Positions 9,346 to 54,364 of a stretch of 64,000 nucleotides of DNA are shown here, one piece after another. The translations under genes and the position numbers were made by a program. Positions within the stretch are counted from its first letter, which is position 1, and each line of letters opens with the position of its first letter. Source of the DNA: Raillietiella orientalis (Eukaryota); the NCBI GenBank assembly GCA_036172245.1, contig JAYWIR010000001.1, positions 11,160,001 to 11,224,000 of the forward strand, written 5' to 3'. Below the pieces are notes generated by a model, which saw nothing but the letters and a program-made list of their open reading frames with translations, did not search any database and was not told the origin of the DNA.

Positions 9346-9672
9346 GTGGCGCTGACGGGAGGACCCTGCGGCTCGCCCGCCCCCATGGAAGACGGAGAGA
9401 ACGCCAAGGCGTGCCCCTGCGAAGATGCCGGAGGCGGCAGCTGCGGGTCTCCCCGGCCGGAGGGACCCTCCCCTGGGGGAAGGAACAAGAGGAAGAACTT
9501 CCTGCCCAGGAACATTGTCCACTCGTCCTCCTCCTCCTCCTGCCCGGGGCTCCGTCGCTGTCCCTCGCACAGCTCGGACGACGACGACGACGATAACGAC
9601 GAAGACGACGACGACGTGGATGACGACGAGGAGGAGGACGACGTGGACGTGGACGTCGGTCGCTGCGGAGGC

Positions 9673-9720
<48 letters not shown>

Positions 9721-10036
9721 GAGGAGGAGGAGGAGGAGGCCCCTGGCGCCTGGGATGGCGACCCCGGGCAGCAGGAGTCGCCCCTCGACCTGAGCCTCAC
9801 GGGGGGCAGCGGCTGCCGCCACCGTTCTCCCGACAGCCTCTCCTCCTCCTCCTCCCGGGAGTCGGCCCCCGGCCCCACTGCCCCTCAAGGGAACGGCCAC
9901 TACGGCACCATCCGGACGCTCGTCGCCCGCGGCAGGCCCGCGAGCTTTTTCGGGAGGACTTCGGATTCCTGCGAAGGGCGCATCGGCATTTCCGTCGCCT
10001 CCTCCTGCCCGACGGGGAGGATCTCGTCGTGTCCTG
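9346..10036 (+). CDS. cas: Castor-A N-terminal exon (ATG 9385; RNKRKNFLPRNI, poly-D/E tract, PLDLS)
   Basis: Acceptor ctccttgcag ends at 9345. Donor cctg|gtaagt at 10037 is phase 1 and joins in frame to the acceptor at 16381 (G|AA ATG AAG). Confidence 0.75.
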
Positions 10037-13000
10037 GTAAGTGGCCTTTCCCCCCTCCTCCCTTCCCTTCCTCTCTCCCTCCTGAGGGGAGGGGTAGCGT
10101 TCTTCCCGCCGCTTCTGAGCCCTCCCTGTCCCGCAACCCCGGTCGTACCCGAGCTAAGCCAACGCGGCCCCTCTGGCCCTCGTCGGGACGAAGTTCACGG
10201 CAGAACCGCGAGCGTTCCGGGAGACGCCCTGTGCGTTTCCCCGGGAGACGTGAAACCCGCCCTCGCGCGCGCTTCCTCCCCTGACCGTCCTGGGTGACCC
10301 GGGGGGACGTATCCATGCTCCCCCTCCCCGGGCCAAGAAGACTTGGTTCTGGACTTCCCCCGGGAGGTGGGACCGCCGAGTTTCATGGGTGCGCGCGGGT
10401 GACTTGGTGCGACAGGAAGAGGTGTGGCTGCCCCTCTCCCCACTTCCTCGCGGTGATCCGGCGGTGGCGGCGGGGCCAAGCTGCCTGGCGGATCCTCCGT
10501 CCCGCGAGCTTCGCGCCGGCTCCGCCCGGCGGCAACAGCGGCAGCGCCCGATTGTTGCGCTTCCCACCCGGATGTTCGCCGTTTCACAGGAAACCACCAC
10601 CGCTTCCGGGATGCTTCTCGGCGCGCTTCCGCTGTAAACCTGGGAAACTTTGGGGGAAACGCACATTAAAAAAAAGAAACGGGAACGATCCGGAGGGGGA
10701 GGACATGAGAGAAGGGGGGGGGGAGGGGGGCGCAAGACGCATGGGAATCGAACGCTCCCTTTGGGAAGGAGCCAGAAGCCAGCCGACTGCCTCACAGCAC
10801 CTTCGTCGCTCCTGCAGGCCGCGGCGAAAGTAGGAGCGGGTGCGGAGCTTCGTCGGGCGCGTTTTTCCGCCCCCACCTCTTGCCCTGCGCAGCGCGTTTC
10901 GTGGCCCCCTCCTGGATTGCCGCCGCACTCTGGGAACGGTGTGTGTGGGGGGGGGAAGGGGGGATTGGCAGCGGCGGCTGCGCTTCTCGCACGAGTCGAT
11001 CCTTCGATTCGCGCCCCTCCCCGCGTGCTTCTCCATCCCGGTTCCATCGTCATTTTCCACCCCGGATGCTGGCTACCGCGGTGGGTGCGTCCATACGGGC
11101 CTCTCTTCCCGTCTCCCAGCGAGGCGCCGCGGCAGCTTCCCTGCGAGACGAGGCCGCACCCCGACTGCGGGCGGACGGGCGCGCGCTGTCCCTGCGCGGA
11201 TGCGGATGCTCTAGCACAGCCCCTCGAGCGCTTCCCTCCCTAGCCCTTCGTTCCTCCTAGTGCCGCTTCCCACTCCTAGATGGCAGAACCACAGCCTTTC
11301 CGACTCGCAGGGGACGGGTCTGTCCCGGGGAAGGAAGCGGCGACTCGCTCGCCTCTTCCTGCTTGTGCGGACAGGCGCCCAAACAGTCTGGGAAGCTCCC
11401 TTCCCCACCCGGAGGGGTTCATGTGTGGGCCGGGGAGTTTCCCGGCGGCCTGCCGGATGCCGCACCGCGTCCCATCGCTGGCGCGCTCTGATGAGGGTGG
11501 AGCTGTTGACGATGCGTGCCAGCCCCTTCTCCCTTTGGTCAGTTGGGCCAGCGCCTTCGGGAGAAAAATCCCCCCGCTTTCTCTCCGCTCCAGCGACGCC
11601 CGTCCAAACGCTCCCGAGATGAGCGCCGGTGTTGATTTTTCCCATGGCGCCAAAGCAGAACGAGCGGGAGGAGTCGAGCGCGAGCGCCTCCCGCCCTTTC
11701 CTCGAGGCCCCCAGGTCCCCTTTTGCCTTTCCCCGCAGATACGCGACGCTTCCCAGGGCGTCGTCGCGACCGCCGCCACTGAAAACCCACGGTCTCCGCG
11801 GGTCTTCAGCGAGACGAGGTCGCGACGAGACGAGACGAGACGAGTCAGGGAGATCAGGCGGGAAGGAGGCGCCTGGAAGGGCTCTCCTCCGCGATCAAGG
11901 GGAAGAAACGTGGTCGTAATGGTGGTGGTGGTGGTGACCTCGGATGACACCCCATCCCTTCGCCAGCAAGCCGGGAGATCTGCCGGTCGAGCGCGCGCCC
12001 CAGAGCCGCAGCCGCAGGTCCGGTGCTCCTGGCGCTCCGCTCTTTCATCCGCGCTGCCATCCCGCGGGTCAAGTGGGGAGGTCGCACGCCGCCACGGCGG
12101 CTCTTCACGTCTTCCTTCCTTTCTTCCCTTCTGTTTCCCAGGGTCCTCCCGCGGTGCCGTTTCGAGGATGCGCTTTTCAGTCCCGCCTCGCTTCGGAGCG
12201 CCCGGGACTCAAGTGCGCCGCGCACAGCTGCCGTCGGGCGCGCGCACTCTAGGCTCGCGTCGGCAGCCGCCGTCGCGTGGCCTCGCGTGGACGTGGGGTC
12301 TTCTCTCGGGTTCCGCTCCACCTTCCTGTTGCCTTTCCTCTCCCAGTCAAACGTCTCTGCTCCCTGCGACCGAAAGCGGAAGGAAGAGTAGCAGACTAGG
12401 GAAGATGTGGCGAAAGGCAGGGTTGCACTCGCGCCATCGAGGTCGACGCCGCCTTGGAAGATAGCGCACGCCGTTTGCTCCACTTTATAGACCGGATGGT
12501 TTCCACCTTCGTTTTCAAGATGGCACCTTTCCTCCTCCTTCTCCTTTCTTCCTGTTCCTCCTTTTCTCCCCCTCTTTTCCCATGGAACGGATTGCATTCG
12601 CCTCCCACCTTAAAAAGTGCTCGTCGATTCGTTTATTTTGTTTTTCCTTCGGTCGGACGATGTCCTCTGGCACGACGAGAGCGGCAGCGGCCGGGTCGCG
12701 CGCACCCGCCTCATCCGCCGCCGTCGTGCAGCGGTGCTCCCTCAGGAAGCGTTCGGGAACGTTCGGAAAGGAGGAGGAGCCGTCCTGCGTCCCACCTGCG
12801 CTCCCTTCCGTTCTAGCGGGTCCCGGGACGTCGGCCGGCTGGCGACGGCGGGCGGGCCGATGTTGGAGCGGATTCCTTTCGAGGGTGGGCGCACGGCAAG
12901 GATGTGAGCATCTCCTCTCCTCCCCCTTCTCCACCCGCTGGCGCACCGCTGTCCCCCACGCCGCCGACGCCGACGCCGACGCGGCGGGACCCGCGCGTGC

Positions 13001-16000
13001 GCGTCTCGCGAGAGAGCCCGCGGAAACGCGCGCGCACCGGTCCCTTCTTCCCCCGCCGCGGAAATGCCGGCCTCCGCGGAGGCGCGTGCGCCCACGGAAA
13101 TCTCCTTCCCCCCTTTCCTCCCCCCTCCCCCCTTCTTCCTCCCGAAGCGTTCGCGTTCGCGCATTCCCACCCTAATGATTACGTCTGAAATTAATTGACA
13201 CACTGTTGACGGCGTCGCCAGGGAGCGCCGTGCAATTTATCGAGTCTTTGTCTGGAGCGCGCGCTCTCCGGTTCCCGAAAATCCGAGAATTGCCGCTCGT
13301 CCCGGAGAGCAACACGCTTCCGTCTGGAGGACTCCTTTGTTCTTAATGGTCGCTGATTGCGTGGTGAAATCAAAATCCCGAGATGGCTTTATTTATCGTC
13401 TCCCGCGCGCTCCTAATGCTCCTTGCTCGGCACGGCCTTCTTCGCCAGATAATTAAGGAAGTTTCGGAAGTACCGTAAAAAGTTTCCCGCGAAGCTCCCA
13501 ATGGCAACCAGGCTTTTCGCCTCCGCTCCTTAACGACCCGGTTCCTGAGTGGGTTCGGGCGGAAGGAACCCAAACCTGCGGCGCCGAAGCGACTCCGGGA
13601 AAGGCCGAGGGTGGATAGCAACTTTGAGGAGGTGGACGGGGCGCCCCCCCGTCGGACCGCGGGGGCAATGTTGGGAACCGAGGAACGGCGCGAAAGGAAA
13701 AAACGAGAACGGGATCGGCGGCGCCCCATCTGTCGTCCCCCTACTTCGCGATCCCGGTGGACCTTCCTGCCGCGAGCCACCGCGTGGGCGGCGGGCACCA
13801 GAGGGAAGGGTGGAGCAGGTGTTTGCGACGGAGCGGCGCGGCTCATTCTTCCTCAGCGCTCGGGATGCGCGGAGATCGCACGCGTCGGCACGGCGACGGG
13901 GCTGCTGCGGCGAGACTTCTTCGCCGTTCTTCGAGCACACACTCGACCAGCATCGGCGTTTCAGCTTTCCTGGGAAGCCGTCAGCTTTCCTCCTTTTTTT
14001 TCCTTTTTTTTTTTCCTAATGGGAACAGCGGATTTTCAATGACAAATGAAAAGGACTTGCGGAGAGAGGGAAGGAGGTGGGGCGTCTGTGCAAAGGTCGG
14101 CCCTGCGTGCAGTCCTCTTTGCGCGTGGTTCGCAGCCACATTCGCCCTCCGCTCTTTGGCAGCGCCCATTGTTCACAGCCCGACGTGCACGTGGGGCGGG
14201 CGTCCCCCCCCCCCCCTCCCGTTCGGAACCGATTCTGAAAGACGACTGTTTGATGAGCTGGGAAAGAATCAAACTGGAGTGACGTCTGGCGCATAAAAAG
14301 TTGCGGTTCTTCGCTCGTGATGGAGTGCACGCACACAACAGCAGCAACGACGCGTCGGACTTGGGGGGGGACGGGCAGGAAAGGGGGGGGGGGGGAAGTA
14401 TTCAGCGTCGTCGTTCACGGGAGGAGAGAGAGGGCCATCTCGTTAAGCGTATCCCGGCTTCGGGCTGGAGAGTCCAACACTTTTGCCGCTACCCGGAAAC
14501 TCAACAAAAGCCTGAAAGGATCCTTTTGAAAGGAACAAGTGAAGGTTCAAGAAGCTGTGACAAAGGAGTGCTCCCGACTGTGCTGTTTGTTGGCGAAGCG
14601 GTGGGACCTGCTGCCGTGCCCGCGCCCCGATGCTGTGCGTGAAGGGATGAAAGGGCGAACAAGGCGGAAAACAAGGGTAGCCGAAGCGCTGCGCGGTCTT
14701 CCGGGGCCGTGCAGTGTCCGGAAGAGCTGACTTTTTCTCCGCTTTGTGTGCGCGGCCTGCCCGCGGCGCCCACGACTGTCGTCGGACGGTGTGCTCCGAG
14801 AGTCCTCCGAAGGGAAAGGGGAAGAGGGAGGGAGTCCGTCCCGATGCGCGCGCGCGCGCACCTCGGTCCGCCAGGCTCTTTGGCGGCCGCGCAGTTTCAA
14901 GGCTCATCGTCCTGCAGAAGCAGCAGTCGGACAAGAAGGGGTGGGGAGGGGGGAGGGGAGGCAACGCCAGACCGGGCGGCCAACCGGCGCGGGCCGTTCC
15001 GCTTCCCCGCGGCGCGCGGGTTCCCCTCTCAGCGGTGCGCGCGCGCGCGCGCCTCGGACAGGATGCGTCTTCGCTCCGCGCTGCGCGAGGACTTGTCGAA
15101 CGCGGCCGCCGCGCGCCAGCGGGGCCGTCCGCCTCGTTACTGAAGGAGGAAGAAGCGCGCGAACGAAGGCGAAGAGATGGCGTTCCGAGGAAGGTCGAGG
15201 GAAGGCGGCACGTTGTCAGGTGAACTACTGACGTGGGCCGCCTGCCTGCCGCTGCTGCTATTGGTTACCGGCCCGCCGCGTGCTACCGATCCGTTGGCTC
15301 GTGATACGCATCCTCTCCTTGAAGGCAGCTTCGCAGCTGGCCTCTCCCAGCCGGCGACATTTGACCTGCTGGAAAATGACGGAACCCGCCGTCTGCCTGC
15401 AGCACGTACGCCGTCCTCAGAGTCCCCCTAATGGGTTTATAATTTTCGTCCCATTTTGCGGCGCGCCATGCTGCCGTGCCCATAATCCCTTAAGACATGT
15501 GATTACGCGGTCATACTTGTGGGCTCAGGACTCGTCGAAAGATCGTAATGGGAGCGGGGAAGAAGGGAGGGATTAGGAAAGGCAACTCAGAATGGCTCTC
15601 GGACACCGCGCCCCTGCACCCTTACAAAGACCCTCAGGCAGTCCGGGGTTTTTTTTCCCTCTTTTTTCTTTCTTTTTTATTTACATGCTCCCGCGTTTTG
15701 GATTGCTATGGAAGGGAGCGGTCATCTTTCGGTCGCGGATCGCCTCTGCGGCGGTGCGGCCCTCGTACCGGAGCCGAGCAGCAAGGTTCCCTCGGGAACG
15801 CACGGGGAGGCCCCCGCTGCCACTGCCTCGTCCTGCTGCAGGCGGAGGCGCGGAGTGGACGAGGGGAGGAACGGCGTGCGCCCGCCGCCGCTGCTTCCAC
15901 GAAGGGTCCCTTCGGGCGCGTGCCCCCCTTCTTCCCCTTCCTTCCCCGGACCGAACGGCCCGGAGCCCTGCCGATGCCTCCGAAACCACTGCCATACGCT

Positions 16001-17474
16001 GGGGACTGCCGGCGGCAAAACTCGAAAGCTCTCGCGCCCTCGTCCTTCCTTTTCCACGGTGCGCTCCGCGTCTGTGCCCCCCCCCTCATCCCCTTCCACG
16101 TCCCTTTCGTCTGGAGGTGGTTCCGGCGGCGAACGCCGGGGGTGAACCGCCCAGGACCTCGGACGTCCTACCGTCCGGATGTTCCCGAGAGAAAGAAAGA
16201 GGGACTGAGTCCCTCCTCCGACGGGCGGAAGAGTCCCCAGCGCCTGGACCCCCTTACTTCTCCACCATGCGCGGTCGACCGCGCTGCATCGAAATTTCCC
16301 CCTCCCCCTCCCCTCCCTTCGGCGTGGGAGGCGATCTAGATGGAACGATCGACGGCGAACCTCCGCCCCCCTTCCTCGTAGAAATGAAGATGGCGGAATT
16401 CGGCGTCCAGAGAGGCCACGGGTGGTGCGACGTGTCGTCCTGCCTGGGTCCTAAGGACTCCCTGATGATCGCCGACTACTCCCGGTACATGAAGCGGTTC
16501 TCCAGCTGGTGCGAGTGCAACGCGTCTTGTTGCAGGGAGCTGAACTACAGGTGAGGCGTTCGCTGCTGCCCTGACCCCGCGTTTCCCTAGGGAGGCGGCG
16601 AGGGGCGGGGGGAGGCCACGTGCTTCCTTTTTCCCAACCCCCCCCTCCCACTCGGGCTTCGGGAAATGCGGAGCGGGAGGCGGGGAGTCGGCGGCATCTC
16701 GCGTTCGTTCCCCCGCCCAGCCCGGTGCCGCGAGATCCTCGACATCGGAGGAAACGACGTCGAACCTTTCGACCCACCAGCAACGCGCCTCCGTCCGCAC
16801 CTCTGGGCTGGTGACCTCTGGGTGCCGCTTGACACGCCCGCTTCCTCCCGGGGGAGCCTCCTCTTCCGCACTCCGCACGAATGTGGGTTCCCCTCCCTTC
16901 TTTCCCCTCCCCCATCACGGTTCTCCGCCGCCGCCGCCGCGCGCGCCGCGAGAGGGTGCCGCACTCGAAGCGGTCCGACCGTTTCCAGGGAGCACTTCCA
17001 CTGCAAAGGTTGCGGCAGCCACCGCGTGTTTATGAAGAAGGACGAGATGGTGCGCCACCTGAAGTGGCACCGCAAGCGGGAGGAGTCCCTGCAGCACGGG
17101 TTCATGCGCTACTCGCCCAACGACGACTGCTCAGAGCGCTTCGGCCGCGGCTGCTCCCACAATGGGAAGCAGACCCACTACCATTGCCTGAAGCCCGGCT
17201 GCGAGAAGGTGTATGTCAGCACCTCGGACGTGCAGATGCACGCCAACTACCACCGCAAGGACTCCGCCATCCTTCAGGAAGGTTTCCAGCGCTTCCGCGG
17301 CTCCGAGGACTGCGGCCAGGCCTTCTGCTCCTTCCGGGACAAGAAGCTCACACACTTCCACTGCAGGAGGAGCGGCTGCCAGTTCTCGTTCAAGAACAAG
17401 GCGGAGATCGGTGAGCTGCGCGAGCGCCCTTCCTCACCCGCCTGCGACGGGAAAGAGGAGGAGCGACCGAGGAT

Positions 17475-17543
<69 letters not shown>

Positions 17544-20477
17544 GTGCGTCTTCTTCCTCCCTCTCACCCCGACTCAGAGAAGCACAAGACGCACCACACC
17601 AAGGAGGAGACGCTGAGCAAGGACGGGTTCAAGAAGTTCCTGAAGAGCGAGAAGTGTTCCTTCGAAGGCTGCCACATGTCCGAGGTGTGCAACCACATCC
17701 ACTGCACGCGGCTCGGCTGCCGCTACGTGCTGCACTCCAGCAGCCAGCTGTACTCCCACAAGAGGAAGCACGAGAGGCAGGACATGGACGGCCTCCACGG
17801 CGGCAAAGTCAAGCTGGTGGGTCCGGGGAGTGGACCACTGCCGGTAAGTACCCTCCTGCGCTAGCCCGCCCGTCCTTGATGGGAGGGGCCGCTCTCCAGT
17901 TGCCCTCTTTACTCACCCACCCCCCTCAGGTGCGCGTGGCAGGGACGAGCCCCTTCGGCTGGCAGAAGTCGGTCGCACGCGACCGGGGATCCCCGGAAGG
18001 AACTTCCGCCGACGCCGCAGGCCAGTTCGTGGACAGTTTCGCCGACAAAGACGTTGCTGTCAAGTTCGGAGGTCAGTGGGGCCCTCTCCCTCTCCCTTTT
18101 TTCCCCCGACCGCTTGAGGCCTGTCTGCGACCGGGGATCGCTTCCTCGGGGGAGGAGAAGGCGTGGGAACTGGAGGAGGTCGAACTTCTGGTTCTGGGGC
18201 GATGGGGTTGTCCGTAGACCGGGGAGGGAGTGGGGGTCATGTCGTGCCCGCAAACTGACTTTTCCTTTTTTTTTTTCTCCTTCCCGGCGCCAGCAGCACC
18301 AGCGGAGAAGCCCGCCAGACGGGAGAATGGCGTCACGTCCTTCGGCGGCCCCTTCTGCCTGCCCATCGCCGATCGAGGCTCCAAATGCGCGCACCTGGTA
18401 AGCGGCCCGACCCTCGGGCGCGCCCTCCGGCGGCTGCTGCCTTCTCCGCGCCTCATGGGCCCCGGGGACGGCCGGGGACCGTCCACTTCCCAGGAGGAAG
18501 TGCGCGCGCGCACAATCGCCCTTCGCGTCCGGTCGGGAAACCTCCGGTGGCTTCTTCTCCTTCGTTCCAGGTGGCCGAGCAGCAGCAGATGTTCCGGGAC
18601 GTCCGCCATCTGAGTTTTTCCTCCCAGCCCAAGTTCCTCGTCCTGGACGACCAGGTGGACAGTCGGGACGGTCTGAAGTAGGGCGACTCTCCCCCCTCTT
18701 TCCCAGGGTTCTCTCACGCGTGCCTCTCTCCTTGCCAAGGTCTTCCTTCCCGCGCTTTGTGCACGGATTCCGTCCCTGCGTGCCTTTCCCTCCGGGCTTC
18801 GCCATGGTGGGGTCCCCCCACTGCGGCGGGCTGAGCCCGTTCGGGGGCCGATCCAAGGCGCTTCCCGAACCGGAAGTGCAAGAAGATGCTTTGGAGGCGA
18901 AGGACGACCACCACGACGATGACCACCACGGCGCGGCGCTGTCGTTCGCCCGCACCTCCCTGCCCTGCGCGTCCCCTCCCCCCCCGCCTCCCCCCCCTCC
19001 CACTCCTCCTCCTCCCCGCTCGGCGGGCGGCGCAGCAGCCTCGCCACCTCTTCCCCTTCCCATCCCGTTCCCTTTCCTCATCCGGGATTTCCCCGAAGAG
19101 AGGCGCCGCGCGTTCCGGGGGATGCTGGCCGCCGCGCACCCGCCGTTCCCGCCGTCTGAGGAGGAGGAGGAGGAGGAAGAAGAGGAGGGGGATGCAGCGG
19201 TCCGCAAGGGGCGGAGGCACCCCCGACCCAACGAGGTACCCGCGCGCGCAGCGCTCCTTCCGAGATTCCCCCCCTCCCTCGATTTTCTTCCCTCGGCGCG
19301 AGGGGGTCGCGTCCTCTTCATCACTTCCTCTCCGGCGCTGGGGTCTTCGCTCCTTTCCGAAGCTCTCCCCTCGCTTTCGGTACCGATGGTCAGCCACCCC
19401 TCCGGCCGCGCACGCCCGCGCGATTCCCCGAGACGCCGCACTCACACACTCTCTCTCCCTTCGCAGCATCCCGGTCCGGACTCGCGCGAGGCCGCCGCCG
19501 AGAATCCCGTCCCTGCTCCCCCCCTCTCCCCTCCGACCCCTTCTTCCCCTTCCCCTCTTCCTCTCCCGGCATCCTCTTCCTCCTCCTCCTCCTCTTCTCC
19601 TCCTCTTCCTGCCCCTCTCCCCCCTCTCCTCCTCTCGGCCTCTCAGCTGGCGCATCCTTCGGGCCTCGAGGTGCCTCCGAAGAAGGGGGGCACGAAGGTG
19701 TTCGGTGTCCACAACCCTGCCGGCTTCCCAAGGACCGCCTGCTCCTCCCTGCGGTTCCTGAAGGACGAGCCGGTGCCCAGCGGCTACGTGCGCTACAGGT
19801 GAGCCCCGGAGGAGGAGGCGGTTGCGGGGTGGGGGAATGGGGATGAACGCGCCTACTCGACCGTCGTCGACCCCCGATTTCTGCAGGTTCAACCAGGACT
19901 GCGGCTACGGGAGCTGCAGCTACCGGGAGCACCAGACGCACTTCCACTGCGTGCGCAAGGACTGCGGCTACAGCTTCTGCGACAAGACGCGCTTCGTGCA
20001 GCACACAGCGCGGCACGAGCGCCTGGACACCCTGATGGGCGGGGACTTCTCGCAGTACCGCGCCAGCGTTTCCTGCGGGCGCGGTGCCTGCGCCTACCAC
20101 CTGTCCCGGCACAGCGGCAACAAGGCATCGTCGCACTTCCACTGCCGGAAGTGCGATTTTGTCTGCACGGACACGAACAAGGTGGGTGGCGGGTTCAATC
20201 CCTCTCACCCCCTCCGCCTCAGGGGGAGGGAAGGCGGTCTCGCTCCTCACCCTTGACACCCCTTTTGGTTCAGGTGGTGGCGCACCGTAGGCAGCACCAG
20301 AAGCTCGACTCGATCCTGGCCGCCGGGTTTGAGAAGTTCGCCTCGGGGCAGGACTGCATGGTGGATGCCTGCCAGCACAGGCAGAAACAGACGCACTACC
20401 ACTGCGTGGACTGCCGCCTGGCGGTGGTTGGACTCTCGCAGATGTCCGAGCACCGCTACCGCCACTACCCCAAGTGA
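9385..20477 (+). CDS. cas: Castor/CASZ1-family zinc-finger transcription factor, paralog A (spliced, ~1062 aa, 7 Castor-type fingers)
   Basis: Phase-consistent GT-AG model: 9385-10036, 16382-16550, 16989-17410, 17578-17843, 17930-18071, 18294-18397, 18571-18677, 18740-19235, 19467-19798, 19887-20181, 20274-20477. It encodes Castor hallmarks: EHFHC..FMKKDEMVRHLKWHRKREESLQHGFMRYS, STSDVQMHANYHRKDSAILQEGFQRF, HSSSQLYSHKRKH, CDKTRFVQHTARHERLDTLMGGDF and TNKVVAHRRQH. Confidence 0.93.
13170..13460. promoter_or_regulatory. candidate intronic enhancer of Castor-A (TAAT/ATTA-rich island)
   Basis: ctaatgattac, aattaattgaca, cttaatgg, tttatttat, ctaatg and ataattaag cluster within about 290 bp of an otherwise GC-rich intron. 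Confidence 0.4.
16382..16550 (+). CDS. cas: Castor-A exon, lead-in to finger 1 (DYSRYMKRFSSWCECNASCCRELNYR)
   Basis: Acceptor ctcgtag|, donor tacag|gtgagg. Homologous to Castor-B 54139-54364. Confidence 0.9.
16989..17410 (+). CDS. cas: Castor-A exon, fingers 1-3
   Basis: tttccag|GGAGCACTTC through GAGATCG|gtgagc; Castor C-x-C/H(F/Y)HC-C2H2 repeats. Confidence 0.96.
17482..17539 (+). repeat. (CT)n microsatellite in Castor-A intron
   Basis: About 29 perfect CT units. Confidence 0.95.
17578..17843 (+). CDS. cas: Castor-A exon, end of finger 3 and finger 4
   Basis: ctcag|AGAAGCAC through CTGCCG|gtaagt; encodes DGFKKFLKSEKC..NHIHCTRLGCRYVLHSSSQLYSHKRKH. Confidence 0.95.
17930..19798 (+). CDS. 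cas: Castor-A linker exons (17930-18071, 18294-18397, 18571-18677, 18740-19235, 19467-19798); low complexity, no intact fingers
   Basis: Chain of GT-AG sites with matching phases. The last exon ends LRFLKDEPVPSGYVRYR, homologous to Castor-B LRLFKDEPIPTGYLRFR. Internal boundaries are tentative. Confidence 0.55.
19887..20181 (+). CDS. cas: Castor-A exon, C-terminal fingers 5-6
   Basis: ctgcag|GTTCAAC through AACAAG|gtgggt; encodes FNQDCGYGSC..CDKTRFVQHTARH..HFHCRKCDFVCTDTNK. Confidence 0.96.
20274..20477 (+). CDS. cas: Castor-A last coding exon, finger 7
   Basis: ttcag|GTGGTG; encodes VVAHRRQHQKLD..THYHCVDC..HRYRHYPK*. Confidence 0.95.
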   Translation: MVAHRRQHQKLDSILAAGFEKFASGQDCMVDACQHRQKQTHYHCVDCRLAVVGLSQMSEHRYRHYPK

Positions 20478-21618: not shown

Positions 21619-21624
21619 AATAAA
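21619..21624 (+). terminator. candidate polyadenylation signal for Castor-A
   Basis: AATAAA about 1.1 kb after the stop codon, in GC-rich sequence. Confidence 0.35.
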
Positions 21625-24900: not shown

Positions 24901-25273
24901 CGCCAGGAAGGCGAGGAGGAGCAAGTGTAGGATGAGGGGTAGTGACCCTGAAGCAGCCGCGAGAGCTCCTCTTCCACCCGCTGACCCTCGAGGAACGCCG
25001 TGAGCCTCGAGCGGCTGCTGCAGACCTGACAGGGTCAGCGGGGAACGCCCCGCACCCCTTCCTCTTCCCGGGTGTGCGTGACGCGGAAGCAGCGAGGGAA
25101 TGCACTCAGGAGTTGTGGCTGTCGAAGGAGTGGTTACCGGCGAACTTTGCGACCGAACCTCCGGAGCGCTTGTTCAGGTTCCGCAGGATCATCGTTTGAC
25201 TGCGCACCACGGTGAGTGTTTTGCCACTTCACTCGAGTCGGAGGCGCGAAACGGCTCCACTCCACACACGAAA

Positions 25274-25340
25274 GCCCCCCTGGTAGCCATGTGGCTGCGG
25301 CCTCTCCGCACGTCGTAGGTTCGAATCCCCACACGGAGGA
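25274..25340 (+). mobile_element. tRNA-derived SINE head or tRNA pseudogene (Pol III A and B boxes)
   Basis: A-box-like TAGCCATGTGG at 25284-25294 and perfect B box GGTTCGAATCC at 25318-25328. No complete cloverleaf is visible. Confidence 0.5.
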
Positions 25341-41425: not shown

Positions 41426-41431
41426 TTTATT
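41426..41431 (-). terminator. candidate polyadenylation signal for Castor-B
   Basis: TTTATT on + (AATAAA on -), about 170 nt after the stop codon. Confidence 0.4.
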
Positions 41432-41596
41432 CAGGAATGCTTTTATGTCTCGGCAAGAGCATCAAAAAGAGGGGGAGGGGAGGATGATGAGGAGGAAGAA
41501 GAACATGAGATGGGCCACTCGTGGGTGCCACCTTGAGGTACTCTCGAGAACGGAATGGATCTGCTTGAAGGTCACCGCGGAGGAACCCTCCGGCGC

Positions 41597-41800
41597 TCAA
41601 TTCTTTTCGTGCTTGTATCTGTGGGAGGACATCTGCGACATCCCCAGAACGGAGAACCCGCACTGGATGCAGTGGTAGTGGGTCTGGCGCTTATTGTGCT
41701 GGCAGCTGCTGTTTTGACAATCCTGCGACGGAACATACCGCTCGAAACCCGCGGCGTTGATCGAGTGCAGCTTCTGGTGCTGTCGCCTGTGAGCCACCAC
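41597..41800 (-). CDS. cas: Castor-B last coding exon
   Basis: ttccag|GTGGTG; encodes VVAHRRQHQKLH..THYHCIQC..HRYKHEKN*. It is 204 nt long, the same as in Castor-A. Confidence 0.95.
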   Translation of the reverse strand: MVAHRRQHQKLHSINAAGFERYVPSQDCQNSSCQHNKRQTHYHCIQCGFSVLGMSQMSSHRYKHEKN

Positions 41801-44800
41801 CTGGAACAGAAGGATAAAGAGGGGAAAGCTCCAAGGGACCAACAAGAACTCTCCGTCGGATCCGTCGTTCTATCGACGCGCTGCCTGGGTGCACCGACGG
41901 CACAGATGAGTTCGCGCGCATCCTTCCCGTGGGAGCCGGTCGGGACTCTGCATGAGTGAGAGAGCACAGCAGGAGATGTGAGGATGAGCACGCTCGCATT
42001 GAGCTCCTCACTCCAGCACCGGAATCCCGGCTGGCACGCGTCCCCGGGAAAACGTTCGAGCGCCCTTCGCCGCCGCCGCCGCCATCTTGCGGCAGGAAGA
42101 CCGACACAGAGGGAGGACGTCCACTGTCGCTGCCGCAGCAGCAGCAACACCCAACCACTCTGGACGGTTCGCGCACGTTTCGGAGGGCGAGAGACTTCAC
42201 CGCCCAGCGAGTCTGGGGAGGGTGCGGGCAGCCGCAGCACTCTTCGTAACTACGAGTCCGCGGAGCACGAGGGAGTAGGAGGAGAAGGATGGAGTAGGAG
42301 TGGAAGAGGAAGAGAGGAAGTGAAGGATACGGAGGAGGAGGAGGAGGAAGAAAAGGAAAACAGGGAGAAAAGGGGTAGATTTCCGCTGTTCCTCTACTGA
42401 GCATTAACTGCTGCCATTACTTCCGTGAGGAATGTTGCTGCTTCAGGAACTCTGGACCGCTTGACGGCGAAGAGCAGTTCTTCCGCAACCACCAAGGTCT
42501 GTTGACGTTGCGTAATATGCAAATGATTGCCCATCGTTTGAGATGGCCGTATGAAACGACGGATGCTACGGCAGCCGCGCTCCATTTTCTGAGGTCCTCT
42601 CCCTCCGGGACGCATCTCCACCGATCCGAAGACGGGGCTCGAGAAGGACGCAGTCCGCACCACGTCGTCATCAGGAGGAAAATAAAGCCAAAGAAGGGGG
42701 GATGATGCGATTCTCCAGCCGGGAGGAAGGAAAGAAAAAAGGGATCTGGCGTACGCACTCTACAAAAAGAGACAGGAAAGGAAACGGGAAGAACAGGAAG
42801 AGGAGACGTTAGGAAGAGGAAAGGGAAGGCAGGTGGGAAATCCCCGAGATGTAGGGGATGGCGCGCAAAGATGCTCGCACAGAGCTTCTATCCATGTTCC
42901 CTCAAGGAGCGCGCAGTGGTCAGCAGGCGAGCCGCCGCCGTGAGAATGTCGGCAGGTGGAACCCGTCTCAGGCGGTGTTCCACTCGCCGGGCGGCCTGTG
43001 GTTTCATTCCGCCGCCGGCGAAGGAAAGCGGAGGGCCAACGGGGAGAAGAGGCACGGGGGGAGAGCCGCTACAGTGCCTCCGGAGCTCACCTTGTTCGTA
43101 TCGGAGCACACAAAGTCGCACTTCATGCAGTGGAAGTGCGACGACTTGCTCTGTGGCGTCCCGGAGGCGTGCTTGCAAGCGCTGCGGCCGCAGGAGACGT
43201 TGGCGCGGTACTGGCGGAAGTCCCCGCCCATCAGGGTGTCCAGGCGCTCGTGCCGGGCCGTGTGCTGTACGAAGCGCGTCTTGTCGCAGAAGCTGTAGCC
43301 GCAGTCGCTGCGGCGGCAGTGGAAGTGCGTCTGGTGCTCCCGGTACCCACAGTGGCTGTACCCGCAGTCCTCGTTAAACCTGAGGGAGCCGCCCGTCGGA
43401 GCTGCCGCTCTCCGGCTTCCGGCCCGACCTACGGGAACTCACCGGAATCTGAGGTACCCCGTGGGGATGGGCTCGTCTTTGAACAGGCGGAGGGGGGCGT
43501 GATGGTGGTGGTGGCGCGGCTTCTTGCTCTCTGGCTCTGGACTGAAGGACTTCCGCTTGAAGCCCTCGCGTCTACACGCGTCGAGGCGCTTCTGTGACTT
43601 TTCCTGCTCCTCTGCCGCCGCCGCTGCTGCTGCCGCCGCCGCCGCTGCTGGAGAGCGCTCTGAAAGGCAGGAGGTTGGCGAGTGCTCGCAGAGGACCGTG
43701 ACAAGGAAGACCTCGCCCCAGAACGTTCCGCCCCTCCCCCCCGCCTCCTGCTCAGAGGGAGCAGCAACAAAAATGGGAGAAAGGGAAAAAAATTACCAGG
43801 AGAGCTCGTCGCCATGGTTACGAACGGAGGTCGAACCAGGGAGAGTATGTTTGGTCTGTACCCAAACACCGGATATCCGACTTGGAAATGGGGAGGCAAA
43901 AAATAAGGGTGCGACTGAGTATCGGGCAAGCAGGCTGCTCCTACACAAAATGAGAGAGGCACGGTTGGTTCAATTAGGCATGTCACTGACCGGGAGGATT
44001 CTCATGCAACAGGTCACGGTTCCGCAGAAGGAAAGGGACCCTCGCCTATCCCCCACCGTAAAGAGGGTCCCAACCAGCGAAAGGAGGGTAGGTTGCTGGT
44101 CGCTGCTCGAGAAGACCGTCGGCAGGGTGGAGGACGAGGAGCGGAATGGCGGAAGCGGCACAAAAAGGGAGAGCGACCGAGGAGGACGGGCTCCGCAAAA
44201 GACAGAAAGGCAACCGCAGGGCCTCTGCAGCGTTAGGGGATGGCGGGTAGGGGGGAGGAGGGGAAGAAACGGAATCGGCGCCAAGGGCTTGCAGGAGACT
44301 ATTCTGGCGCGGTTACCCCGTCCGAGGCATCCTCGCCCTGACCCGACGAACCCTGAGCCCCCGGAAGAGACCGAAAGACTGAGAGGTCAGGGAGAAGGGG
44401 ACCACTCCTATTCCCCTGAAGAAGAGGACTGGGGAGGAGAAATTCTGCGCTCATAGGAGGAGAACGTTAGACAAGGCTCCACAACGGGGGTGGTCTCCTC
44501 AGGATGCAGGGTCCTCCCCCCCGACGCGAGAGCGGCTACATTCCCCACCCCGCCCCCTCCTTGCATACGAGCTCGGGAGGAACAGTGACCTTGCTGGAGA
44601 GCGACCCGCTCGATGGTCACGGCGCTCATCGGACGCTCTTCCTCTTCGTTCGCAGTGGCAGAGCGGGATGCGGTTTCCAGCGCCAGCGGCGCGTGGCACG
44701 CCGGGGGCTCCTGGCTGCTGAGAGCGTGCTTCAGAAAGTGCGGGTGCAGCTTGTCCATGTCGGAGAATGCCTGGAACGCGAGTGTTGGAGCCCGGGGCGC

Positions 44801-47800
44801 TTTCTCGGCGGGATGGGTGGCGGGGAAGAGGGGCGCGCGTGCACCCGCCCTCCCGCCCACCCGCCCCGCCCCGCCACACCAACCTGGTTGCACACGTTGC
44901 AGTGGTAGTGGTCCTTCCTCTTCAGCTTGCAGAAGGGCCGCCCGCAGGTGTTTTCGGAGCTGAACGCCGCCTGGAACGGAGCCGGGCATACGCCGGCAGA
45001 GAGGAGGGCGGAGATGGGCACCATCGGGGAAACCACGATCTCCACCGGCGGCTTCGCCTCGCCTGCGGGAGGAAGGAAACCGTGGTCAGCGCGCGAGAAG
45101 GTCGGCGCGCCCGAGGTGCGTCTCACCAGCGCCTTCGTTCTCCCTCTTGAGAACTTTCGCTGCACCCTCGCGCAGGCCGTCGGGGCAGCCCGACGGTGGG
45201 CCTTCGGAGGCCCCCTTCCCACGTTGGCTGGACAGGAAGGTGGAAATGGGGTAATACGTCCCGGTGGCCTTTATGACTAGAAGGGAGGCGCAGAGGAAAA
45301 AACCGTTAGCCCCAGGCGGTGTATGGGAGGGAACGCCAGACACGAGTTCCGACTTGGCAGTCTTCTCTTCCCCGCACCGGCTCCACCCAGCTCACGCGAA
45401 GCCCAGCACCAAGTCAGAGAGCGCGTTTCCGGCCGGTGGATTCCGTGGGACGGTAGCGCCTGGGAAGTGGTCCGTCCAGTGCGGTTGTCGCAACTTCCCC
45501 CCTCTCGACCATCATCGCACCACTGCCGCCGGTGCCCTCGATTTGCTCATCTCTGCTGTTCTAGACCCCACGGGCTGAAGAGGAAGTGCGCCATCTCGAG
45601 CGCGGACGCACGATCGAGGGTGGACTGTGCCACCCTGGCGCGCCATGGAGCAGCAAGACGCTGGCGAAAGGGTTATCTTGGCCCCACGCAGAGGTTGAAC
45701 GCGATGCCCAGCTGCTCGAGAGACGACCAGTGCTGCTGCCACCGCCCCCACTTCGCCGCGCGGCAGACGACCCGACGATGTCAACGCTCGGCATCCACGG
45801 GATCAATGCTGGGAAGTTCCAGAGACTGCTTCCAGGGGTCACTCCGTTGAGGACGAACTTCGGTGTCGCCGTCGCCGTCCGACCGGCAGATTTTAAACCC
45901 TTCCCGCTTCATTCTCCTCCTCCAGGCTGATGAGGGGCAACCAATCGTTTTGCGCTCCCATGTGAGCTCTGCGACGGCGGCGGCGGAGGAGGTGAGAGAG
46001 ACGGTGGAAGATTCCTCCTCCTCCTCTTCCTCCGCAGCATTTCCATTTCACGAGAAGCATTTTTGTTGTTGCGCCTTGTGGCCATTATCGTCAGCTAAAA
46101 GGAACGCGAGGCCGGCTGGACCTCGTGCCCACCGGCATCCGGCGGAACGGACCCTATCGCAACCGGCGGCGGGGCACCTGGGTGCAAAGGAAGAAGACCG
46201 GAAGGAAGGCGCCTCATTCGTCGGGACCGGAAAGAGCCCTCCAGCTTCGCCTTGCGGCGCGTCTTCGGGACGCGGTGCGTTCTGTTACCGCTGGAGGAAC
46301 CGGCGAGGAAGGGGGTGTTGCCGGCCGAAGGTTTTTCCGCGCTGCGCCCTCATTCCCTCCTTTTTGCCCGTCCGTTTCTTTGATACACACCGAGAGCATG
46401 TCCGCTTCCCCCTCCATTCGAAGCCGCACCAGCAATGGTGCTCTCTCTCGTCGCGGCGCCGACGCTCCGGGAAGCCTAGTCTCCACCTTGTGCAGGGAAG
46501 AAGGTTGTTTTTTTTTTTTCCTTTCCCCGGTCCCTTCCAGCCGCGTGCCCGGAGTCGCGTCTCCGCCTCGCGATCGCAGCGCCGCGCGCAGCGCTGTCCG
46601 GGGTTCGCATGCTTTGTTCCGGGGAGCGTCCGACTCGGGCCTTTTAATGACGTCTCGAAGCTCGAGTAAACAACGACGAGCTGTTTTTCTTGTTCACTAC
46701 CTTCGTGCAACAAACAGGACAGGCAACAAGCAAAACGGGGAATTGACGAAAAGAAAACGACAGCAAGTGAAAAAGGAAGACAAAAAAGAACGCGCCGACG
46801 CGCGGCTGTCCCGGTACTGCCCGCGCGATTCGACGTTCGCGCCCTCAATTCCAGCGGAGGGTGGGCGACTCCCTGCTTTCCAGAAGGATCGGGCCGGTGT
46901 CTGGAGCGAAACAGCCATCACGCATTCCTCTCCGCCCGCGAGAATCGCCCGCCGTGTCGGAGCCAGGACTGGGAAAGAGTCCAGTTGGGCGGGAACGGCG
47001 GGCCACGAGTGGACTCGAAAGAGGCGCGTCCGCAAAGCCGAAGGGCATCTCGCCACTGGCGAGCAGCGTGGGATGGCCAGCGATCAGGGAACGGTGAGCG
47101 AAGAGGAAAAAGGAAGGGGGGGGGGAGGAGGGGAAGAAGGAAACAAAGAGCTCGTGGGGAGCAACGCAGGCGGAAGGAGACCCTGCCGCCGCGTGGAGTT
47201 CGGAAGTTCACGGAGAGGTGCCGAGAGCAGAGGCGGCCTCTCGGAATTCCGATGAGACCGCGCTTGCGGCTGCCCTTTGAAAACCTCCTCCTGGCTGGGA
47301 GGAAGGGGGTGGGGTGAGGTGAGGGGATAAAACGCGGGAGAGGAGGGGCGTGTCGGTTCCCGACAAAGCTCGCACCCCTACGGGGTCCTCCCGGTGCGCA
47401 CCGCAATCTGCCGACGCTCGAGAACACTTCCGTGCCCCTTTGCGCCTTGACGCTAGGGAAGGAGCTGCCGCCGTGGCCGAAATCCAAGTGAACGTGGTGG
47501 TGGCGGCGGAAAAGAGGGAGAGAGGGAAGGAGTTGCCAAGGGGACGGGGGACCCCGCTCGGCGGTCGAATGCGGTGACTCTCCGTTGGAGCCGCAGCGGG
47601 TGTAGCGGCGGCGACCACGAACCGATGAGTGACGCCACCCAAGGTTTCCGCGGGTCGTCTCGTGAAGCGTGCAAGGGGGAAAAAACGGGAAGCGTCAGGA
47701 AGACCCGAGCAGATGGAGGTACGCGCGTGCAAAGCGACGATCATCCCGGGGAAGTCCGCGTTTGCCAAGGGTGAGCCGTACCGGAAACGCCCACGAAAGT

Positions 47801-50800: not shown

Positions 50801-53800
50801 TGCTGCTGTGCGCCCCGGCCGTGCTGGACGAATGCGACTCCGGAGAGCTGTTGGACCCGAGATGAGTGTCGCTGATATGAAAGCTCAAATCTGCTCTGCG
50901 GATGGAGACGAAGGAACATCTATGGAAATCACAGTGGTAATGACGCTCCCTCTGCAGCAGGCATCCCGCGTGCTCGCAGAAGTGCTCGAAAGATTTCTCC
51001 GCTTCCGACTGCAAGAAACGGTCGGCAGAGGGCCGTCAGGAGGAGGATGCCGGAGGCGTCGATGTTCTTACGCAAGTCTCCGAGTCGGAAGGCGACCTTG
51101 AAGCCAAGGGACTGAGGGAAGAAGCCATGTTGGGGAAGGTGGCGGAGGCGGCGTCGCTTTCTTTCGGAGGCGCAACTGCGCCTTCGCGCGGTGCGGCGGC
51201 GGCGGCGGCGGTCGCGTCCGGGGCCACGTGCAGGCAGCCACCCGACACGGTCGCAGGAGCCCTCGGGTTCTTCACGGGGCGGACCTTCTTCCTGCGGCAC
51301 ACGTCTTCGCAAGGGACCTTCCTGAAGTGCTCGGCGCTGCCCTCGAAGAGGCACTTGTGCATGGTGAAGTGCTCCAGAATCTTGAACGGGTTCTCCGACA
51401 GCACCATCGCTTCCCCGCAGCCGTTCTTGCGGGACCGCACTCGTCAGCCCATCCCGGCGGGAGACAGGCAACTACTTACCAGCTGGCAGTGGTAGTGCTT
51501 CCCGAAATTCCGGTAAGCGCAGTCTTTGGAGCACGGGCACGGCTGGTGACCAGGAAGGACGTGCGTGAAGTGCGACTGGATGATCAGGTCCTGCTGCATG
51601 TGCCTCTTGGCGTGGTCGTTCATGCTGTCCAAGGAGTCAAACGAAAGGTTGCACGTTTCGTGCTTGCAGTGGTAGTGATCCTAGGGAGGAAAGAAAAACA
51701 AGAGGCGGCCTCGTGAAGAGCCCGTAGAGCAGCAGCAGCAGCAGCAGCAGCAGTGCTGTGGGCAGTGTTCGTCACCTTGTTCAGCAGCTCGCACCACGAG
51801 AAGCAATGTTCAGAACTCTCACAGAAAATGAAGTAACCTTTGAGGAAATCTTCAAGCACTGGTATTCTTTGCTTTGGCTTCATTGCAGCTGGAGAGGGAA
51901 AACAAAACAGCCGTGAGTGGGGACCACAGATAGCAGGCATTTGCTTTCGTTCCGCTGAGGAAGATGGCAACAGCAAAGAATGAGCGAAAGAAGGAGAAGC
52001 GCAGTACAAAAGTGGTGGCTGCAGCAGGAACAGTAGCAGTCGCAGGAGGCGGAAAAAGAGGACGGAGGGGTACGCAGAGAAGGAGAAGCAGCAGCTCGGT
52101 GTCGCAACAGCGACAGTGAAACCACCTGCTCTGTGGAGATTGCATAAGTCACTCCAGACTTCTGCATCTTCAGCGAAAGGGGTGCTCGGGAAAACAGCCC
52201 CGGAGACGTAGGCAGTCCGACGGGATGTAGCGCCCACCCGCCTCCCTCTTTTTAACAGAATGGCACTTCTGCAACCGGGAGTCCATGAGCGCGGTTAAAG
52301 GGTGCTGCTTCAGCCGCGAAAGAAGAGCCAAGAAAGTGGAAAAGAAGGATAGGATGGTGAGCGTGCGCGTGCTGCCACTAGTATCCCCCCCCCCCCCCCG
52401 AGAGACGACATGAAGGAGACGGTAGCGCTGACGGCGACGGGGGAGAGTGCTCACGAGCCCGGGGTGTGCGCACGTCCTTATTTGAAGACTCTTCCTCCTC
52501 TTTCCCATCCACCTTCCCCCCTTGGCTCCCAAATCTGCCGGAAACAGCAAATCAGCATTCCGGACGTCCTGTGCGCACCGTAGCGAAGGACTGGGAGGAT
52601 GCGCATCCACGAGGCTGCTAGCGAAACTCCTTGGACGGCCGCTCTCCGAAGAGCTTCCCTGCCTCCCTCGCTCCCCGTCTCGGCTGGTTCCTCTGGAATG
52701 CGTGGTCAACGGGCCTCCGGACAGAGGCACCCAGGAGGAGACCCGTCGATGAACGCCCGCCGAAGACCCGGTCATCGCTTTCCTGCCTTCCAATTCCCCC
52801 TCCCTGCCGAGACAACCCCGAGGGCAGGGCATGGCCACGGAGAGACGTCGGCAAGCAGCACGGATCCACTCATTGCTGCTGCCACCGCTACTGGCCAGAA
52901 GCAGCAGCAGATCCCACTCGCAGCAGCACCGTGTGGCCCCGACCGCTATGGTAGGGAACACAGGAGCGGCGAGACTCGTGTTTGGAGGAGGCCGGTCAGG
53001 AGAGGGCAGGGATTGATCCGAGAGGCGGACGAGCGAAGGGGTCAGGGGGCAGCGGGTTCGGGTACCTTCGTCATCCGCTTCGTCGCAGCGTCCGGCGGAA
53101 GAGGACAGCTCGCCCCTGCCGCTGCACGGGGCGGAGGGCGGAGGGGTCTGGAACAGGTCTGCGAGGGACGTGAAGGGCTTGCTGTTGGACGTTTCGGCGC
53201 CGGAGGACTCCTCTTCCGCGGAGAAGCAGCAAGGGTTGCCCTCGTGGAGGGCGCTTCTGGAGTCCTCCACGGAGGACCTGGAGCAGGAGAGGGAGTCTCC
53301 GTTCGGTTCCAGGTTCGAAGGAGCCTGCTTCTCCCTCGGTGGCACGAGGGGCAGGTGGTGGTCGGAGGAGGTCAGCTCCATGTCCTGCTTCTCGTGCTTT
53401 CTCTTGTGCGAGTACAGCTGCCCGCTGGAGTGGAGCACGTAGGTACACTCGGGCCGTATGCAGTGGATGTGGTTGACCACCCCGGAGAAGCGGCAGTCGA
53501 AGAAGTGGCAAGGTTCTTGTTTCAGGAACTTCTTGAACCCGTCCCTGGTCAGCTGGTCGTCCTTCGCGTGATACGACTTGTGCTTGTCTGCGGAGAGAGG
53601 GGAGCAGGGCTTCGCTCGCTCGCGCGGGAGTGGGGAGGAGAGGGGAGGAGGCGCTGGACGCCGCCGCACGCTCACCCATGTCGCCTTTGTTCTTGAAGGT
53701 GAAGGAGCAGCCGTCCCTCTTGCAGTGGAAGTGGGTGGTCTTCTGTGCGCGGAAGGCGCAGTGGGCCTGGCCGCAGTCCTCGCAGCTGCGGAAGCGCTGG

Positions 53801-54364
53801 AAACCCTCTCTCAGGATGGCGGAGTCCTTGCGGTGGTAGTTGGCGTGCATCTGCACGTCCGAGGTGCTGATGTACACCTTGTCGCAGCCGGGCTTCAGGC
53901 AGTGGTAGTGGGTCTGCTTCCCGTTGTGGGAGCACTCTCCGGGGAACTGGTCCGCGCAGTTGTCCGTGGGCGAGTAGCGCATGAACCCGTGCTGCAAGGA
54001 CTCCTCCCGCTTGCGGTGCCACTTGAAATGCCGGATCATCTCCTCCTTCTTGACGAACACCCGCGACGTGCACGTGACGCAGTGGAAGTGCTCCCTGGAG
54101 AAGGGAGGAGTGGTCGACGGGATGGGAGCGAGCCGTACCTGTGGGCGAGCTCCCTGCAGGACGACCAGCCACAGTCGCTGTAGCTGGAGTACCTCCTCAC
54201 GTGACTGCTGTACTCAAAGAAGTGCGCAGCCGCCACCGTCTTCGAGGTGGACTTGGCCGCCGCCGACGGTTTGCACGAGGCAGCGAAGCCCGCCGGACCG
54301 GGCACGGCGGCGGGAGCGGCAGCGGCCATGAAGCGCGGGACGACCGAAGGCGGCGCTGTGAGGC
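41597..54364 (-). CDS. cas: Castor/CASZ1-family zinc-finger transcription factor, paralog B (spliced, ~1060 aa, 11 Castor-type fingers)
   Basis: Phase-consistent minus-strand model: 54364(ATG 54329)-54139, 54094-53676, 53587-53066, 51888-51776, 51680-51480, 51425-51072, 51008-50794, 50193-50087, 45062-44884, 44770-44590, 43659-43443, 43379-43091, 41800-41597. It has the same Castor hallmark motifs as paralog A. Extra linker exons may exist. Confidence 0.93.
43091..43659 (-). CDS. cas: Castor-B exons 43659-43443 and 43379-43091, C-terminal fingers
   Basis: Encode poly-Ala, KRK/KKPR basic patches and LFKDEPIPTGYLRFR|FNEDCGYSHC..CDKTRFVQHTARH..CSDTNK. Confidence 0.93.
44590..45062 (-). CDS. cas: Castor-B exons 45062-44884 and 44770-44590, fourth central finger
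   Basis: Encode CGRPFCKLKRKDHYHCNVCNQ|AFSDMDKLHPHFLKH across a 113-nt GT-AG intron. Confidence 0.88.
50087..50193 (-). CDS. cas: Castor-B linker exon (tentative)
   Basis: Acceptor ttttttgcag| (phase 2) and donor AAAG|gtgagg (phase 1) bridge 50794 to 45062 in frame. Confidence 0.6.
50794..51888 (-). CDS. cas: Castor-B central exons (51888-51776, 51680-51480, 51425-51072, 51008-50794), three extra Castor-type fingers
   Basis: Encode CFSWCELLNK|DHYHCKHETC..HAKRH, CSKDC..KHYHCQL|NGC..HFTMH and CEHAGC..RHYHCDFHRC..HISDTH. Splice phases are consistent. Confidence 0.8.
51728..51753 (+). repeat. (GCA)n microsatellite in Castor-B intron
   Basis: About 8 units. Confidence 0.85.
53066..53587 (-). CDS. 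cas: Castor-B exon, end of finger 3, finger 4 and linker
   Basis: ccgcag|ACAAGCAC; encodes DGFKKFLKQEPC..NHIHCIRPECTYVLHSSGQLYSHKRKH. The 3' donor (GAAG|gtaccc) is tentative. Confidence 0.85.
53676..54094 (-). CDS. cas: Castor-B exon, fingers 1-3
   Basis: Encodes EHFHCVTCTSRVFVKKEEMIRHFKWHRKREESLQHGFMRYS through FKNKGDM; GT-AG bounded. Confidence 0.96.
54139..54364 (-). CDS. cas: Castor-B exon, lead-in to finger 1 (EYSSHVRRYSSYSDCGWSSCRELAHR)
   Basis: Acceptor ctcccag|, donor cacag|gtacgg; aligns with Castor-A 16382-16550. Confidence 0.88.

Follow-up and report, generated by a model that had tools for sequence, protein, structure and literature searches.

Two diverged castor/CASZ1 paralogs in tail-to-tail arrangement in Raillietiella orientalis, one of them without the middle fingers

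We identified two castor/CASZ1-type genes, lying on opposite strands and converging tail to tail, in a window of 64,000 nucleotides from Raillietiella orientalis (GenBank assembly GCA_036172245.1, contig JAYWIR010000001.1, positions 11,160,001 to 11,224,000; positions below are counted from the first letter of this window). Copy A occupies 9385-20477 on the plus strand and copy B 54364-41597 on the minus strand. Within the neuroblast timer series, castor is generally regarded as a single-copy gene. The pair described here consists of real, old and lineage-restricted paralogs, and combines an unusual loss of finger units with an ordinary duplication process. We consider it probable that the genes arose by an old local inverted duplication in a pancrustacean-like lineage, that the fingers of both have been held under purifying selection, and that the two copies are no longer equivalent. 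Their stop codons (20475-20477 in A, 41599-41597 in B) are 21,119 bases apart. An earlier note, made from the letters of this DNA, had proposed both the convergent pair and a distance of 21.1 kb between the stops, and both agree with our measurements.

The genes were recovered by tblastn and by profile hidden Markov model (HMM) matches, and their best protein matches are named castor or CASZ1. A BLAST search with exon 3 of copy B returned 377 matches (best E 1e-129, 70-80% identity in the first ten), and one with exon 3 of copy A returned 430 (best E 4e-119); the matches listed are the best 120 of each. Exon 3 of copy A was 71-74% identical to named castor proteins, with 74% the highest among the matches listed, and exon 3 of copy B 76-80%. 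E values of the finger exons against proteins named castor/CASZ1 ran from 1e-95 to 1e-129, and the proteins so named come from many arthropods, molluscs and other protostomes. A castor profile built from 120 of the matched proteins aligned to copy A in seven colinear pieces on the plus strand (profile positions 85-173, which is the N-terminal region, 353-383, 382-521, 520-592, 1298-1317, 1316-1416 and 1415-1480). On copy B it aligned in 12 pieces on the minus strand (346-383, 383-521, 522-600, 719-780, 781-836, 905-945, a weak one at 1050-1069, 1125-1154, 1154-1195, 1265-1317, 1316-1417 and 1415-1481). By finger-domain similarity to named proteins, both copies are castor/CASZ1 members. A scan of 13 exon translations against Pfam with hmmscan gave no castor-type family; the model PF26743 was probably absent from the Pfam copy used, and PF26743.1 is the precomputed annotation on nearly all listed castor matches.

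The two genes share four intron positions and phases, all as the earlier note had described them and all with GT-AG borders. The junction between R and EHFHC is in phase 2 (last and first exon bases 16550/16989 in A, 54139/54094 in B), that between NKxxx and E/DKHK in phase 1 (17410/17578 and 53676/53587), that between R and FN in phase 2 (19798/19887 and 43443/43379), and that between TNK and VVAH in phase 0 (20181/20274 and 43091/41800). A fifth common intron is likely, as exon 2 of copy A and the pre-finger exon of copy B both start after a phase-1 acceptor. The last exons had been called identical 204-nt exons; they are identical in length (201 coding nt plus TGA in each copy) and differ in sequence, at 69% DNA identity. 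The four shared introns measure, in A v B, 438 v 44, 167 v 88, 88 v 63 and 92 v 1290 nt. Several GT-AG introns of copy B are very short, at 44, 54 and 63 nt (54095-54138, 51426-51479 and 43380-43442), whereas the copy A introns that match or neighbour them are 438, 167 and 88 nt long, indicating strong intron-size drift between the paralogs.

Self-comparison of the window by blastn aligned only four short segment pairs between its halves, all inverted and all corresponding to exons. These were A 16984-17420 with B 54099-53665 (83% DNA identity), A 17575-17788 with B 53590-53377 (79%), A 19884-20184 with B 43382-43088 (82.5%) and A 20261-20447 with B 41813-41627 (69%). The introns of A and B gave no alignment by blastn. 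With exons 69-83% identical and introns unaligned, the duplication is old, as had been supposed, and is not a haplotype artefact. Over the core of 421 aligned codons, the two proteins are 69% identical.

Pairwise estimates of non-synonymous (dN) and synonymous (dS) divergence between A and B depended heavily on the method. The Nei-Gojobori method (NG86) gave a dN of 0.23 and a dS of 0.59, a ratio of 0.39, and the Li-Wu-Luo method (LWL85) a ratio of 0.40, whereas maximum likelihood (ML) gave a ratio of 0.005 with dS marked as saturated. The castor coding exons have a GC content of 0.77-0.96 at third codon positions (GC3) and of 0.30-0.52 at second positions (GC2). GC3 this extreme makes dS unreliable in both directions, and the dN/dS methods differ by two orders of magnitude, so the dN/dS check suggested by the earlier note could be computed but gave no dependable answer. 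We therefore replaced it with a permutation of codon identity and a count of near-invariant residues. Among 292 codon pairs encoding the same amino acid, 234 were identical, compared with 208 ± 4.4 after shuffling within amino-acid classes (maximum 224 in 2000 shuffles); synonymous sites are near the level set by codon bias, though not fully there. An alignment of 118 homologs has 197 columns with a conservation of 95% or more, and of these copy A keeps 183 and copy B 190. In both copies, the finger exons and the last exon have a GC3 of 0.82-0.96; the middle block of B has 0.77 and non-coding DNA about 0.65. Taken together, the near-invariant residues, intact frames, splice sites and undiminished GC3 speak for purifying selection on the finger domains of both copies during most of their history since the duplication, in line with the constraint proposed earlier. 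Copy A evolves somewhat faster than copy B (end branches of 0.63 and 0.50 in a 51-row tree, where the median of the other rows is 0.083). In the pre-finger motif, A is nearer to the consensus than B.

The clearest difference between the copies is in their HxHC finger units, of which there are seven in A and 11 in B. The 127 homologs of at least 1000 amino acids (aa) carry 9-13 units, with 12 in 107 of them. Copy A thus has fewer finger units than any sampled castor, having lost four or five; without the full set, it is a truncated-architecture member of castor by descent and not a typical one. Profile positions from about 600 to 1298, which cover the middle fingers, are unmatched in A. Intron 4 of copy A (17844-19646, plus strand, 1.8 kb) occupies the place of the middle finger exons in other castors. 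It contains no frame with coding-type GC3 and no profile match, and tblastn with the middle exons of B found no plus-strand match in it up to E = 10 (these exons find only the other fingers of A); the sole match inside the intron was one of 27 aa on the minus strand (E = 3.7). The description of both copies as full-length in the earlier note is therefore not borne out, either for A, which is without middle fingers, or for B, whose 5' exon with the RNKRKNF motif was not found in the window.

Our model of copy A has seven exons, open throughout and with no internal stop, joined by six GT-AG introns and encoding about 719 residues. Introns 1 and 4 have predicted borders, chosen among phase-compatible sites. 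Exon 1 (9385-10036, plus strand, as are all exons of A) begins with the ATG at 9385 and has a tentative 3' end at a putative GTAAGT donor at 10036, phase-compatible with the acceptor at 16382. It carries the RNKRKNFLPRNIV motif at 9481, an acidic D/E run and a PLDLS motif at 9781. The RNKRKNFLPRNIV motif (RNKRKNFxPRNI) matches the castor N-termini of arachnids, horseshoe crabs, decapod crustaceans and hemipteran insects among the matches listed. Exon 2 (16382-16550), with a predicted 5' boundary, encodes the pre-finger DYSRYMKRF...CRELNYR motif and ends in phase 2, and exon 3 (16989-17410) encodes finger units 1-3 and ends in phase 1. Exon 4 (17578-17843) begins with EKHK... and carries finger unit 4; its frame stops at 17861, so the donor must lie before that position and is placed provisionally at the GTAAGT at 17843. 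Exon 5 (19647-19798, with a predicted acceptor at 19647) ends with FLKDEPVPSGYVRYR in phase 2, exon 6 (19887-20181) holds two C-terminal finger units and ends with TNK in phase 0, and the last exon (20274-20477) holds the last finger unit. Within exon 1, a long stretch encoding Asp and Glu spans 9560-9760 (plus strand). A run of CT/TC dinucleotides at about 17455-17545 (plus strand) fills most of intron 3 and would translate as SLSLSL.... In neither copy did we find the LPxNM..ILTLAAL motif that other arthropod castors conserve.

The finger units located in copy B comprise four N-terminal, four middle and three C-terminal ones, which places it within the full set of 9-13; a twelfth unit could lie in a linker exon. 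Our model of this copy, all on the minus strand, covers the conserved exons, and the linker exons in 53082-51680 and 50862-44973 are not fixed from the sequence. The pre-finger exon (54139-54364) encodes EYSSHVRRY...CRELAHR and starts, like exon 2 of A, at an AG acceptor in phase 1. Position 54364 had been taken as the end of the gene; it directly follows an AG that is preceded by a pyrimidine tract and is not a start codon, and the nearest in-frame ATG is at 54329. Exon 3 (53676-54094) encodes finger units 1-3, with introns of 44 nt upstream and 88 nt downstream, and exon 4 (53082-53587) begins with DKHK... and continues through finger unit 4 into a linker, with a tentative 3' donor. A middle block (50862-51680) carries three units in exons at 51680-51480, at 51425-51072 and from 51008 to an end not placed, separated by introns of 54 and about 63 nt. 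Two small exons (44590-44973, divided into about 44973-44884 and 44770 to about 44590) encode one finger unit absent from A, at profile positions 1125-1195. The exon ending with FKDEPIPTGYLRFR (43443-43659) has a tentative 5' boundary, ends in phase 2 and is followed by the 63-nt intron. The exon at 43091-43379 is homologous to A exon 6 and encodes two C-terminal finger units; the last exon lies at 41597-41800. A poly-Ala (GCN) stretch at 43610-43655 (minus strand) lies at the start of the exon before the C-terminal fingers.

Because 54364 is a splice acceptor, copy B probably has one or more 5' exons beyond the window. A search for the RNKRKNF motif on the minus strand, from 54364 to 64000 and over the rest of the window, by regular expression and by profile HMM, did not find it, and tblastn with pieces of the upstream open reading frames (ORFs) of A found nothing of a B N-terminal exon beyond the common pre-finger exon. 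The first intron of A is 6.3 kb long, and 9.6 kb of DNA is available upstream of B in the window. The RNKRKNF motif of B may lie beyond position 64000, and a true loss of the N-terminus in this copy is also conceivable. The sole candidate for more B coding sequence in the window is a poly-Gln open stretch upstream of the pre-finger exon (55180-55269, minus strand). Three castor references matched there weakly (E 0.4-20, at 55175-54972), and we did not accept it as an exon.

In the 51-row tree, both copies fell inside arthropods (Shimodaira-Hasegawa-like approximate likelihood ratio test, SH-aLRT, 100) and, within these, in a group that also held barnacles and malacostracans and had weak support (83); there they were sisters at 65. 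A tree of the N block joined them as sisters with a support of 92, and a more careful 31-row tree placed both inside a pancrustacean group (83/91). Forcing A and B together cost only 0.27 log-likelihood (lnL) units (approximately unbiased, AU, test, p = 0.478). As the competing topologies are nearly equal, the trees cannot decide the sister relation; of the two protein comparisons suggested in the earlier note, the BLASTP search bore out castor identity, and the finger-domain tree did not show A and B to be sisters. No A-type ortholog closer than 74% appeared among the matches listed (best 120 of 430), and searches limited to short lengths gave no fragment closer than 76-78% to A. For copy B, no protein closer than 80% was present in the best 120 of 377. 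This indicates that near relatives are unsampled in the protein collection. The adjacency of the genes and the want of a close A-type ortholog favour a duplication within their own lineage, which we propose with moderate confidence from these comparisons.

Several observations weigh against an old duplication within this lineage followed by constraint on both copies. The simple dN/dS values of 0.3-0.5 (NG86/LWL85) are above the expectation for strongly constrained fingers. A tree of the C block has the form (A,(B, ostracod)), with supports of 83 and 82, although a joint clade of A and B is not rejected (AU p = 0.451). The 31-row tree groups B with Malacostraca (82/79) and puts A beside an insect (61/63). 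Both end branches are very long, and long-branch effects touch every tree. An older origin of the duplication would fit these data too. The gene models are drawn from the genomic sequence, with predicted donors and acceptors at introns 1 and 4 of A and at most linker exons of B, and the physical linkage of the genes over the 21-kb spacer is that of the assembly.

Since only the assembly joins A to B, the tail-to-tail layout could be an artefact in which real paralogs are not neighbours or the spacer is a mis-join. We consider this very improbable: the window contains no N, and its composition profile has no abrupt break at one point, only three lower-GC islands, of which one (32-34 kb) is inside the spacer. 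Collapsed or duplicated haplotypes do not account for the pair, since 17-31% of exon positions differ between the copies and their introns differ throughout. It is also improbable that copy A is a decaying partial duplicate or young pseudogene, with no working protein and with the loss of the middle fingers as a first step of decay. Such a fate would suit a gene that is without four to five finger units kept by all 127 long homologs, has the longer branch in every tree, and departs from 14 of the 197 near-invariant columns (v seven for B). However, copy A has seven open exons and six GT-AG introns, and its GC3 of 0.86-0.96 is as high as that of B, where relaxed selection would have let it decay toward the background of about 65%. 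It also keeps 183 of the 197 near-invariant residues although divergence has erased all intron similarity, and its N-terminal and pre-finger motifs are better kept than those of B.

A different timing, for which we see little probability, is an ancient duplication at or before the pancrustacean radiation, with the genes remaining linked here and the A type lost or unannotated elsewhere. A and B are not sisters in the careful tree, in the C block B groups with a protein of an ostracod and not with A, and the A-B core identity of 69% makes the two as distant from each other as A is from any other castor (up to 74%). Yet holding A and B together costs next to nothing in likelihood, the N block joins them with good support, and the long branches explain their unstable placement. 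The copies also share a K in place of a near-invariant R at one column. Moreover, no second A-like castor was present among the best 120 matches of either search (out of 430 and 377), except in the horseshoe crabs with their presumed whole-genome duplication.

Our preferred reading, an old local inverted duplication within this lineage, starts from the observed gene order, orientation, splice phases, divergence, conservation of near-invariant residues and finger loss. In it, copy B keeps the usual long architecture and would do the ancestral job. Copy A is a derived short form that carries the RNKRKNF, PLDLS and pre-finger motifs, four finger units at the start of the series and three at its end, its middle block having presumably been lost through deletion of several exons. 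Both genes would be expressed, each transcribed from its own upstream region toward the common spacer, and the gene-free 21-kb spacer and the flanks may carry regulatory DNA of both. Both would be castor-type regulators that differ in part in their specificity for DNA or for partners; copy A might bind only some castor sites or a variant of them, or be active in a subset of tissues. We also entertain, as an unlikely though not far-fetched variant, that the paralogs divided the ancestral modules. Copy A would then hold the N-terminal RNKRKNF and PLDLS motifs and the better-preserved pre-finger motif, without middle fingers, and copy B all the fingers, truly without the N-terminal module and starting at or near the ATG at 54329. 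We take the PLDLS motif to resemble a co-repressor docking motif. If this variant were true, the regulatory and DNA-reading parts of castor would have been naturally split into two co-regulated genes in one gene-free landscape.

Like arthropod Castor and vertebrate CASZ1, both copies have HxHC finger units, the pre-finger motif (...LNYR, then EHFHC across the intron) and a C-terminal cluster of three units, to which copy A adds the RNKRKNFxPRNI motif at its N-terminus; unlike them, they are two linked genes and not one, and A has seven units in place of the 9-13 of 127 homologs. The earlier note gives castor as a single gene in Drosophila and mammals. This does not extend to arthropods in general, since the database annotation of horseshoe crabs already lists several castor proteins in one genome. 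Tachypleus and Limulus resemble the present case in having more than one castor protein per genome, on separate tree branches. In contrast to the adjacent, inverted and strongly diverged pair described here, their copies lie on different contigs, have short branches and are full length (1831-1886 aa); we presume that they stem from whole-genome duplication.

The closest functional precedents are the long and short isoforms of mammalian CASZ1 and the linked nub/pdm2 pair. Castor is the late neuroblast timer of Drosophila (PMC8406537), and a late temporal-identity role in neural progenitors is not known for it beyond Drosophila and mouse. Mammalian CASZ1a and CASZ1b have 11 and five fingers and come from one gene, according to PMC3072398. 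As here, a long and a short finger complement coexist, but the mammalian short form comes from the same gene and is without C-terminal fingers, whereas the short gene of the present pair is without internal fingers and both of its ends are kept. The nubbin pair is alike as a local duplication of a transcription factor of the temporal series with both copies retained: pdm2 is described as a closely linked paralogue of nub in Drosophila in PMC8406537, and redundancy and shared enhancers are documented in PMC4574355. It differs in belonging to the POU family, and for the castor pair redundancy and shared enhancers are only suggested by analogy. Our full-text literature search, which covered main texts, found no report of linked or tandem castor duplicates, in keeping with the earlier suggestion that such a locus is undescribed. 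One spider paper mentions castor only among genes not cloned.

Two long-retained linked castors offer a natural experiment on which protein parts serve which roles, because one copy is without a third of the fingers kept by every other sampled castor. The pair also illustrates the partitioning of a timer gene after duplication. Its value depends on both genes being expressed. It is not surprising in kind, as developmental regulators often have lineage-specific duplicates and the same series already offers a precedent in nub/pdm2.

The inter-stop spacer (20478-41596, 21.1 kb) contains no recognisable gene, and no coding-type GC3 periodicity was seen in the window outside the castor exons and their antisense shadows. 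Scanned against Pfam, 137 ORFs (70 aa or longer) from lower-GC stretches, which within the spacer were 31.5-34.8 kb and 40-41.5 kb only, gave no family above the cut-off and a single sub-threshold, low-complexity match to Atrophin-1. Rfam and tRNA scans of the window gave nothing. With no other coding signal and no Pfam, Rfam or tRNA match, the two genes are alone in at least 64 kb; such isolation in gene-free DNA is common for developmental regulators. GC content is 59-70% over most of the window, with islands of 47-50% at 4-6, 32-34 and 58-64 kb. These islands and the stretches next to them, the source of the 137 ORFs without a Pfam family, may be old mobile elements or regulatory DNA. The A side and the B side of the window are also connected by two short matches in non-coding DNA, each about 50 bases long and with identities of 84-85%: 7751-7803 with 42351-42302 and 5650-5695 with 60708-60756. 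The former is inverted and joins the upstream region of A to the last intron of B, and both may be low-complexity sequence or small conserved elements.

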